In this document: positions 6,207-6,616 of the stretch, piece after piece
Layout of the letters: every line of letters begins with the position of its first letter
Position numbering within the stretch: position 1 is the stretch's first letter
Origin: a virus
Lineage: Duplodnaviria; Heunggongvirae; Uroviricota; Caudoviricetes
Strand: one strand, 5' to 3'
DNA length: 6,616 bases
Virus record (IMG/VR): IMGVR_UViG_2874920711_000007
Span: 1 to 6,616 of that record
Notes under the pieces: generated by a model
Databases searched by the model: none
Seen by the model: only the letters and a program-made list of their open reading frames with translations
Told to the model about the DNA's origin: nothing
Made by a program: the position numbers and the translations under genes

Positions 6207-6268
6207 TAATGGTGGCCTCCCATCGACGGGTGATTTCGATTCTGAGTGTGGTTTTGTCCGGGCGGGTT

Positions 6269-6616
6269 ATGCAAACAGCAACCAAACCATCAAACAAGGC
6301 CTCAAAAGCTAATGAGTTAATGAAAATAATGGATTCTCTAAGCGAACAAGAAAAAGAGATCGTGATCCATACGCTCAAACGAAAAGGTGTTGAAAAGTTG
6401 CTCGAATTTTGCAGCCAAGAAAACCAAGAGTTGATTAGTTTAACGGGTATTCGAAGATTAGCTGCTTTAAGCCTAAATAACCTGTCAGAACAAAAGGTTA
6501 GAGAGATTTTGGCGGGAAATGAAGCTGAGGCCGATCTCATCCAACTAACCAACAAGGCAGTTAGCATAGCTGTGCTTAACTTACTTGGTCCATTTCTACA
6601 ACTTCTGATAAGCTAG
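6269..6616 (+). CDS. Hypothetical protein encoded in AT-rich DNA at the edge of the phage tail cluster (possible moron or flanking non-phage gene)
   Basis: Plus-strand ORF open from 6209 to TAG at 6614-6616. Candidate starts are ATG 6209, 6269, 6314 and 6323; none has a good SD, and 6269 is chosen because the AT-rich composition begins there. The product (MQTATKPSNK...SEQEKEIVIHTLKRKGVEKLLEFCSQENQELISLTGIRRLAALSLNNLSEQKVREIL...KAVSIAVLNLLGPFLQLLIS) is Lys/Glu/Leu-rich with a hydrophobic C-terminal stretch. An open frame of this length in AT-rich DNA is unlikely by chance. No family recognised. Confidence 0.45.
   Translation: MQTATKPSNKASKANELMKIMDSLSEQEKEIVIHTLKRKGVEKLLEFCSQENQELISLTGIRRLAALSLNNLSEQKVREILAGNEAEADLIQLTNKAVSIAVLNLLGPFLQLLIS

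Follow-up and report, generated by a model that had tools for sequence, protein, structure and literature searches.

The plus-strand open reading frame (ORF) that closes this DNA is, with high probability, a pseudogene relic, made of the 3' fragment of a Mu-type c repressor gene joined by an internal deletion to a stub of the baseplate gene gp46. The window (the whole stretch of 6,616 nucleotides analysed here) comes from a defective Mu-like Shigella prophage, of which it represents the late, right-hand part, and contains the following features:

1-738, minus strand: Mom (PF25680, E=1.3e-75)
647-832, minus strand: Com (PF10122)
Directly adjoining com, minus strand: DUF4376 protein
Minus strand: tail-fibre protein, with a prophage tail-fibre N-terminal domain
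Minus strand: tail-fibre assembly protein
Minus strand: additional tail protein
Minus strand: Gp48 (PF10076)
5131-6206, minus strand: baseplate protein J/gp47 (PF04865 Baseplate_J, E=1.2e-47)
6196-6269, minus strand: 3' remnant of gp46, last 23 codons (TRPDKTTLRIEITRRWEATINAV) and stop
6269-6270: deletion junction, GGGTTA/TGCAAAC, placed by alignments with intact gp46 (locus L002) and intact c (loci L009 and L001)
6270-6568, plus strand: c', the 3' part of the c repressor gene, residues ~70-168 of a 168-aa protein
6566-6569, plus strand: secondary deletion of 10 bp, where intact copies have TATAATCAGC
6569-6616, plus strand: read-through tail, AVLNLLGPFLQLLIS and TAG, non-coding spacer in intact copies

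When positions 6207-6616 were compared by megablast with complete E. coli genomes, the query fell into two distinct parts, bases 1-63 and bases 66-410, which match different genes. The first part (6207-6269) has 97-100% identity to the 3' ends of genes annotated as 'phage GP46 family protein' in 27 genomes, reaching 100% for the end of gp46 in the intact Mu-like prophage of E. coli FDAARGOS_943, and the translations of the window stub and of the intact gene agree. The intact gp46 protein has 150 aa (PF07409, E=1.4e-31), and its gene belongs in FDAARGOS_943 to a late operon formed by J, gp46, V, baseplate, DNA circularisation protein, tape measure, tube and sheath genes. In the window, gp46 is truncated rather than displaced, down to 23 codons, and the remnant overlaps the start of J in the same arrangement as in intact prophages. 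The initial annotation was thus right that a complete gp46/W-like gene is missing upstream of the J-like gene, these last codons and the stop being all that is left; its suggestion of a gene inserted between gp46 and J finds no parallel in the intact FDAARGOS_943 prophage, where J, gp46 and V are contiguous without any insertion. The minus-strand frame upstream of the J start codon, described earlier as open for 20 codons, is in fact open for 123 (6196-6567), with gp46 sequence only in the last 23. The remainder of this frame is antisense to the repressor fragment and open by chance, and the 123-aa product is therefore a second spurious chimeric ORF arising from the same junction.

The second part of the query (bases 66-410) matches a 'DNA-binding protein' gene of E. 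coli RM9088 with 91.8% identity. Alignments of the window with the loci of S. sonnei (L009), RM9088 (L001) and a sister Shigella (L004), and with the intact gp46 locus (L002), place the join exactly between positions 6269 and 6270: intact gp46 reads ...GGGCGGGTTA/ACACC and intact c reads ...GGTCAGT/TGCAAACAGC, while the window reads ...GGGCGGGTTA/TGCAAACAGC, so that codon 70 of c is joined to approximately codon 127 of gp46. No microhomology, and no IS sequence or IS end, was seen at this position in the alignments. The ATG at 6269-6271 takes its A from gp46 and its TG from the TTG codon (Leu70) of c; since its bases come from both sides of the join and the triplet is absent in both parents, the start codon of the ORF was created by the deletion. 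The base composition changes sharply at the same point, from a GC content of 0.597 in 5131-6269 (0.534 in the whole of 1-6269) to 0.395 in 6270-6616. This AT-richness is that of the Mu-type immunity region, with a matching composition in RM9088 (L001 7560-8560). Both the AT-rich shift and the plus-strand ORF pointed out in the initial annotation are confirmed, with the break, given there as about 6265, now located at 6269/6270.

The RM9088 gene encodes a protein of 168 aa and lies at the extreme end of a Mu-like prophage, next to the host gene nrfA, in divergent orientation to a helix-turn-helix gene (in the ner position), the Mu transposase, an AAA ATPase (B) and gam. It has therefore the position and orientation of the Mu c repressor gene. 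The c gene of S. sonnei (L009 697-1203) is likewise found between ner/A and the prophage end. Profile searches assigned to the RM9088 protein the Mu DNA-binding domain PF02316 (E=1.7e-9) and, with E=4.3e-63, the 'transcriptional repressor' family PHROG 7148. For the window ORF this PHROG is hit again (E=2.4e-30), over profile positions 71-176 only, alongside PHROG 3037 (E=5.7e-13), and PF02316 was absent from the ORF in the Pfam search. BLASTP aligns it with the RM9088 protein from residue 61 to the end (87% identity, E=2e-65), and its residues 2-100 represent the repressor C-terminal region, the last 15 being encoded by former spacer. A large protein collection yielded seven relatives, six of them full-length (168-174 aa) and carrying PF02316. 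One, the 168-aa S. sonnei protein P0010, which has PF02316, is 98% identical to the window ORF across 87% of the ORF length, and its residues 7-60 match the DNA-binding domain of the Mu c repressor (1G4D/1QPM, E=9.3e-6) as well as the related MuA domain. The earlier impression that the protein belongs to no recognisable family is thus superseded. The Pfam entries KH_PARP14_6, RAD51D_N and YfeC-like also appeared for the ORF below their gathering scores, and were taken as chance matches in view of the PHROG assignment and the direct homology.

The fragment had no blastn match in the phage collection, and a protein-level search with a full-length homologue was needed to reach the characterised phages. 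By tblastn, ~90% of the length of P0010 can be aligned, at ~26% identity, to the c repressors annotated in SfMu, D108 and a Mu isolate, which are encoded at the left ends of these genomes (positions ~380-1000). Since the repressors of SfMu and Mu are themselves only 24% identical (PMC4406740), an identity of ~26% is normal between different immunity types. We also noted that the gene in the repressor position of FDAARGOS_943 (L011 20004-20567) encodes a 187-aa protein, whose N-terminal region has no relation to its counterpart in the 168-aa repressors and whose C-terminal region is clearly similar to the part retained in the window (...GRKGAEQLL...VGVRRAIALSLGNLPDEKVREI...). This comparison suggests that DNA-binding domains may be exchanged modularly on a common C-terminal module.

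The ORF terminates with the TAG at 6616, and has 115 aa when read from the ATG at 6269 or 135 aa from that at 6209. Compared with the intact S. sonnei c gene and its downstream spacer, 6270-6616 shows one substitution and the absence of 10 bp. The missing segment, TATAATCAGC, is present in S. sonnei (L009) and RM9088 (L001) and absent in both the window and L004, its exact placement being ambiguous by a 2-bp TA repeat. Because this small deletion took the c stop codon (TAA), the reading frame continues through 15 further codons (AVLNLLGPFLQLLIS) of the spacer, and the DNA of the tail is identical to non-coding DNA 3' of intact c. The hydrophobic C-terminal stretch reported at the outset is real (AVSIAVLNLLGPFLQLLIS, with a mean Kyte-Doolittle hydropathy of 1.89 over the last 19 residues). 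Its interpretation as a membrane anchor is not sustained: the 15-residue read-through contributes most of it, all seven full-length homologues end before it (...SI/KA/SP/SA), and the 'anchor' is therefore a by-product of the small deletion.

Regarding expression, a consensus scan for sigma-70-like promoters or terminators found no site in 5900-6616. As a ribosome-binding site, the sequence 5' of the ATG (GGGCGGGTT) is poor and badly spaced, and the DNA upstream of the ORF is antisense gp46/J. The 115-aa ORF was found on ~10 contigs by exact-protein look-up, with protein records named S. boydii or S. dysenteriae, and NCBI annotates it as a hypothetical protein with no pseudogene label. PADLOC assigned no family to the 115-aa ORF and returned for the 135-aa reading only a weak Cas3c match (E=0.017, 12 bits), which was regarded as chance. 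With its native promoter lost and no site in this simple consensus scan, the c' fragment would not be expressed, and we infer that it is a silent, non-functional pseudogene.

The junction is found, identical, in at least six Shigella boydii/dysenteriae assemblies, and the six loci compared (L003-L008) align across it without a break and with 98.1-99.9% identity to the window. This recurrence in six independent assemblies led us to reject an assembly artefact. An exact search for the junction in the contig collection, which holds one genome per species, gave no match. Beyond 6616, where gp46/W-like and V-like genes had been suggested as something to look for, the sister loci have the repressor spacer directly 3' of the ORF: ~190 bp with three TTATCTTGAAT repeats, then the end ...CCTAGTCATA, and then host DNA. 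Past this attL, the host DNA carries the 5S, 23S and 16S rRNA genes, two tRNA genes and then hemG, trkH and pepQ. The same terminal sequence ends the prophages of S. sonnei, RM9088 and FDAARGOS_943, each beside different host DNA, and it is consequently a genuine attL end. Over 150 bp it is ~80% identical to the FDAARGOS_943 end, and almost fully so in the terminal ~50 nt. The left ends lie at 10349-10536 in L004, ~1204-1440 in L009, 8301-8529 in L001 and 20690-20841 in L011. The three TTATCTTGAAT repeats are presumably transposase-binding sites. In the four independent insertions, the shared end CCTAGTCATA runs two bases (TA) beyond the CA that canonical Mu 5'-TG...CA-3' termini would predict.

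The other end of the remnant is damaged. The four long sister assemblies (L003-L006) carry an IS4 transposase gene after mom, and the inverted right-end repeats seen in FDAARGOS_943 (TTATTCAAGATAA) are absent from L004; we are thus dealing with a remnant without attR. In L004 (region 2275-3725) the IS4 ends 38 bp past the mom stop codon, with typA/bipA on its other side. In this same assembly (10735-15835), attL lies ~200 bp from the 5S rRNA gene, with the rrn operon next to hemG-trkH-pepQ, and glnA-typA is found on the other side of the remnant. The flanks, hemG-trkH-pepQ against glnA-typA, imply a local rearrangement relative to the E. coli K-12 gene order.

Within the late region itself, J/gp47 is an intact 358-aa gene in the sister Shigella loci (L003-L008), whereas in the window it is split into two overlapping ORFs by the absence of one G from the G-run at 5912. 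The comparison of the window with L004 (99.85% identical) shows eight single-base deletions, each in a C- or G-run (837, 1610, 1706, 1731, 2020, 3788, 4854 and 5912), and because of these, J (5912), gp48 (4854), the tail protein (3788) and the tail-fibre genes look frameshifted. The pattern suggests homopolymer sequencing errors in the source assembly and not real pseudogenisation. The sister assembly L005 has 110 mismatches with respect to the window, and its gene calls differ in the tail-fibre region. Phage Mu has an invertase gene between the tail-fibre genes and com/mom; no gin-like invertase gene is present in the corresponding part of the window (832-1888).

From these data, the simplest course of events can be drawn. 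A Mu-like prophage would first have inserted downstream of an rrn operon, and an illegitimate internal deletion, from codon 70 of c to approximately codon 127 of gp46, would then have removed ~27-28 kb, a size estimated by analogy with the intact relative FDAARGOS_943, where gp46 and the gene in the repressor position are ~27.5 kb apart. Lost with this segment would be the N-terminal DNA-binding domain of the repressor with its promoter/operators, ner, A, B and the other early genes, the lysis and head genes, the sheath and the tube, and most baseplate and tail genes. The loss of 10 bp at the end of c' and of the right end to IS4 would be later steps. In the window, c' keeps its orientation towards attL, while ner, A and B are absent and its neighbour is the gp46 remnant with J. 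Mu-type phages have c at the left end, with transcription running towards attL, which explains why c' is on the strand opposite to the tail genes. Strand and gene order fit one internal deletion. Directly observed are the homology to the repressor, the read-through, the junction itself and an attL that is still present just past the window, and nothing for transposition, replication, immunity or particle formation is left in the remnant. The initial annotation had considered the locus as a point of truncation or recombination with foreign DNA; the first notion holds, in the form of the gp46-c junction, but the DNA is not foreign, being the prophage's own left end leading towards attL.

That a single deletion took place in one prophage, rather than recombination between two related ones, is what we infer from this arrangement. 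A join of two different Mu-like prophages, or of a solo left end with an independent right-hand remnant, for which IS-mediated rearrangement in Shigella offers one route, appears most unlikely to us. In its favour, Shigella genomes are IS-rich, the sister assemblies carry IS4 38 bp beyond mom, and FDAARGOS_943, which has the closest tail module, has a different repressor allele. Moreover, an intact prophage combining the exact c allele with the exact tail module was not found among the genomes examined; in the stretches available, the S. sonnei contig ends inside A and the RM9088 prophage meets an IS66-family element just past gam. Against such a join, one internal deletion would give exactly the order and orientation seen, the attL end agrees with the one in FDAARGOS_943 (~80% over 150 bp), and differing immunity regions are normal among similar Mu-like phages, as in SfMu and Mu (24% identity, PMC4406740). 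An IS-mediated join in particular was rejected because there is no IS sequence or end at 6269/6270. In either case, the ORF would be a truncated repressor gene. The proposal of the initial annotation, a moron or anti-phage cargo gene coding for a membrane-anchored factor inserted between gp46 and J, could draw on the AT-richness, the opposite strand, the hydrophobic C-terminus and the 'hypothetical protein' label, but its probability is now practically negligible, as the alignments refute it: the sequence comes from c and the left-end spacer of the prophage itself and hardly differs from intact copies, gp46 is truncated and not displaced, none of the seven full-length homologues has the hydrophobic tail, and the AT-richness belongs to the Mu-type immunity region. 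A truncated repressor gene with a junction-made ATG and no promoter- or terminator-like site is not a moron, and no convincing defence-family match supports a role in superinfection exclusion or against phages, the 115-aa ORF being blank in PADLOC.

A different possibility is that the fragment, devoid of the DNA-binding domain and ending in a new C-terminus, is expressed, by read-through or from a cryptic promoter, and interferes with related Mu-like repressors, altering immunity or induction through mixed oligomers or an altered ClpXP-dependent turnover of these repressors. In this regard, the C-terminus of the Mu repressor is known to control its ClpXP-dependent degradation (PMC10584840). 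What is retained is the part conserved across the family, common even to the FDAARGOS_943 repressor with its different N-terminal domain, the junction offers an in-frame ATG, and ~10 contigs carry the ORF unchanged. In addition, Mu vir repressor mutants with altered, frameshifted C-termini act in trans. We nevertheless regard interference as highly unlikely, since the fragment has lost its native promoter, the 370 bp upstream contain no promoter-like site and the ATG is preceded by a poor, badly spaced ribosome-binding site. The identity of the Shigella copies reflects recent common descent of the remnant (99.8% over 6.6 kb) and not selection, and a new tail from a 10-bp deletion is typical of decay. 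The more specific idea that a low level of fragment might act as a trans-dominant modulator of Mu-like repressors of the same immunity type, incoming or resident, is extremely improbable; if true, the ORF would be an 'anti-immunity' or decoy factor that has been domesticated and become fixed in a Shigella lineage.

The reading of the ORF as a repressor fragment left by internal deletion thus remains our preferred one, and it corrects the view of this ORF as an anti-phage candidate: it is a fragment of a known gene family that originated from prophage decay. Chimeric orphan ORFs of this origin are well known and there is nothing new in kind here, but the locus is a clear example of how prophage deletion junctions generate plausible-looking orphan ORFs. 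It should be annotated as a pseudogene, and it brings no new knowledge on phage defence.

When the c repressors of Mu, D108 and SfMu are taken as reference, the full-length 168-aa homologues share with them the Mu-type winged-helix DNA-binding domain and the left-end site next to attL, divergent from ner-A-B, and differ from them in sequence (~26% identity), which makes them a different immunity type. With its match to the C-terminal two-thirds of the repressor PHROG, the window ORF has the central and C-terminal homology of a Mu-type c repressor. Unlike the repressors of these phages, the window copy has neither residues 1-69, which comprise the DNA-binding domain (PF02316), nor the promoter and operators, and it ends in a 15-residue non-native C-terminal extension. 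It would be incapable of binding operators in the manner of a Mu-type repressor, and without the DNA-binding domain neither repression of early transcription nor immunity is to be expected from it. There is also a resemblance to the Mu vir mutants, in which a small indel near the 3' end of c likewise swaps the native C-terminus for a new sequence; the vir repressors, however, are full-length and expressed from an active phage, whereas the window holds a promoterless fragment devoid of the DNA-binding domain.

At the level of the whole element, the remnant resembles cryptic prophages such as e14, with a partial late-gene cluster, loss of the transposition and replication functions, IS damage at one end and fixation in a host lineage. 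The e14 element retains only part of its tail module. Unlike such cryptic prophages, the remnant described here keeps its attL, together with a piece of the immunity gene fused directly to a baseplate gene.
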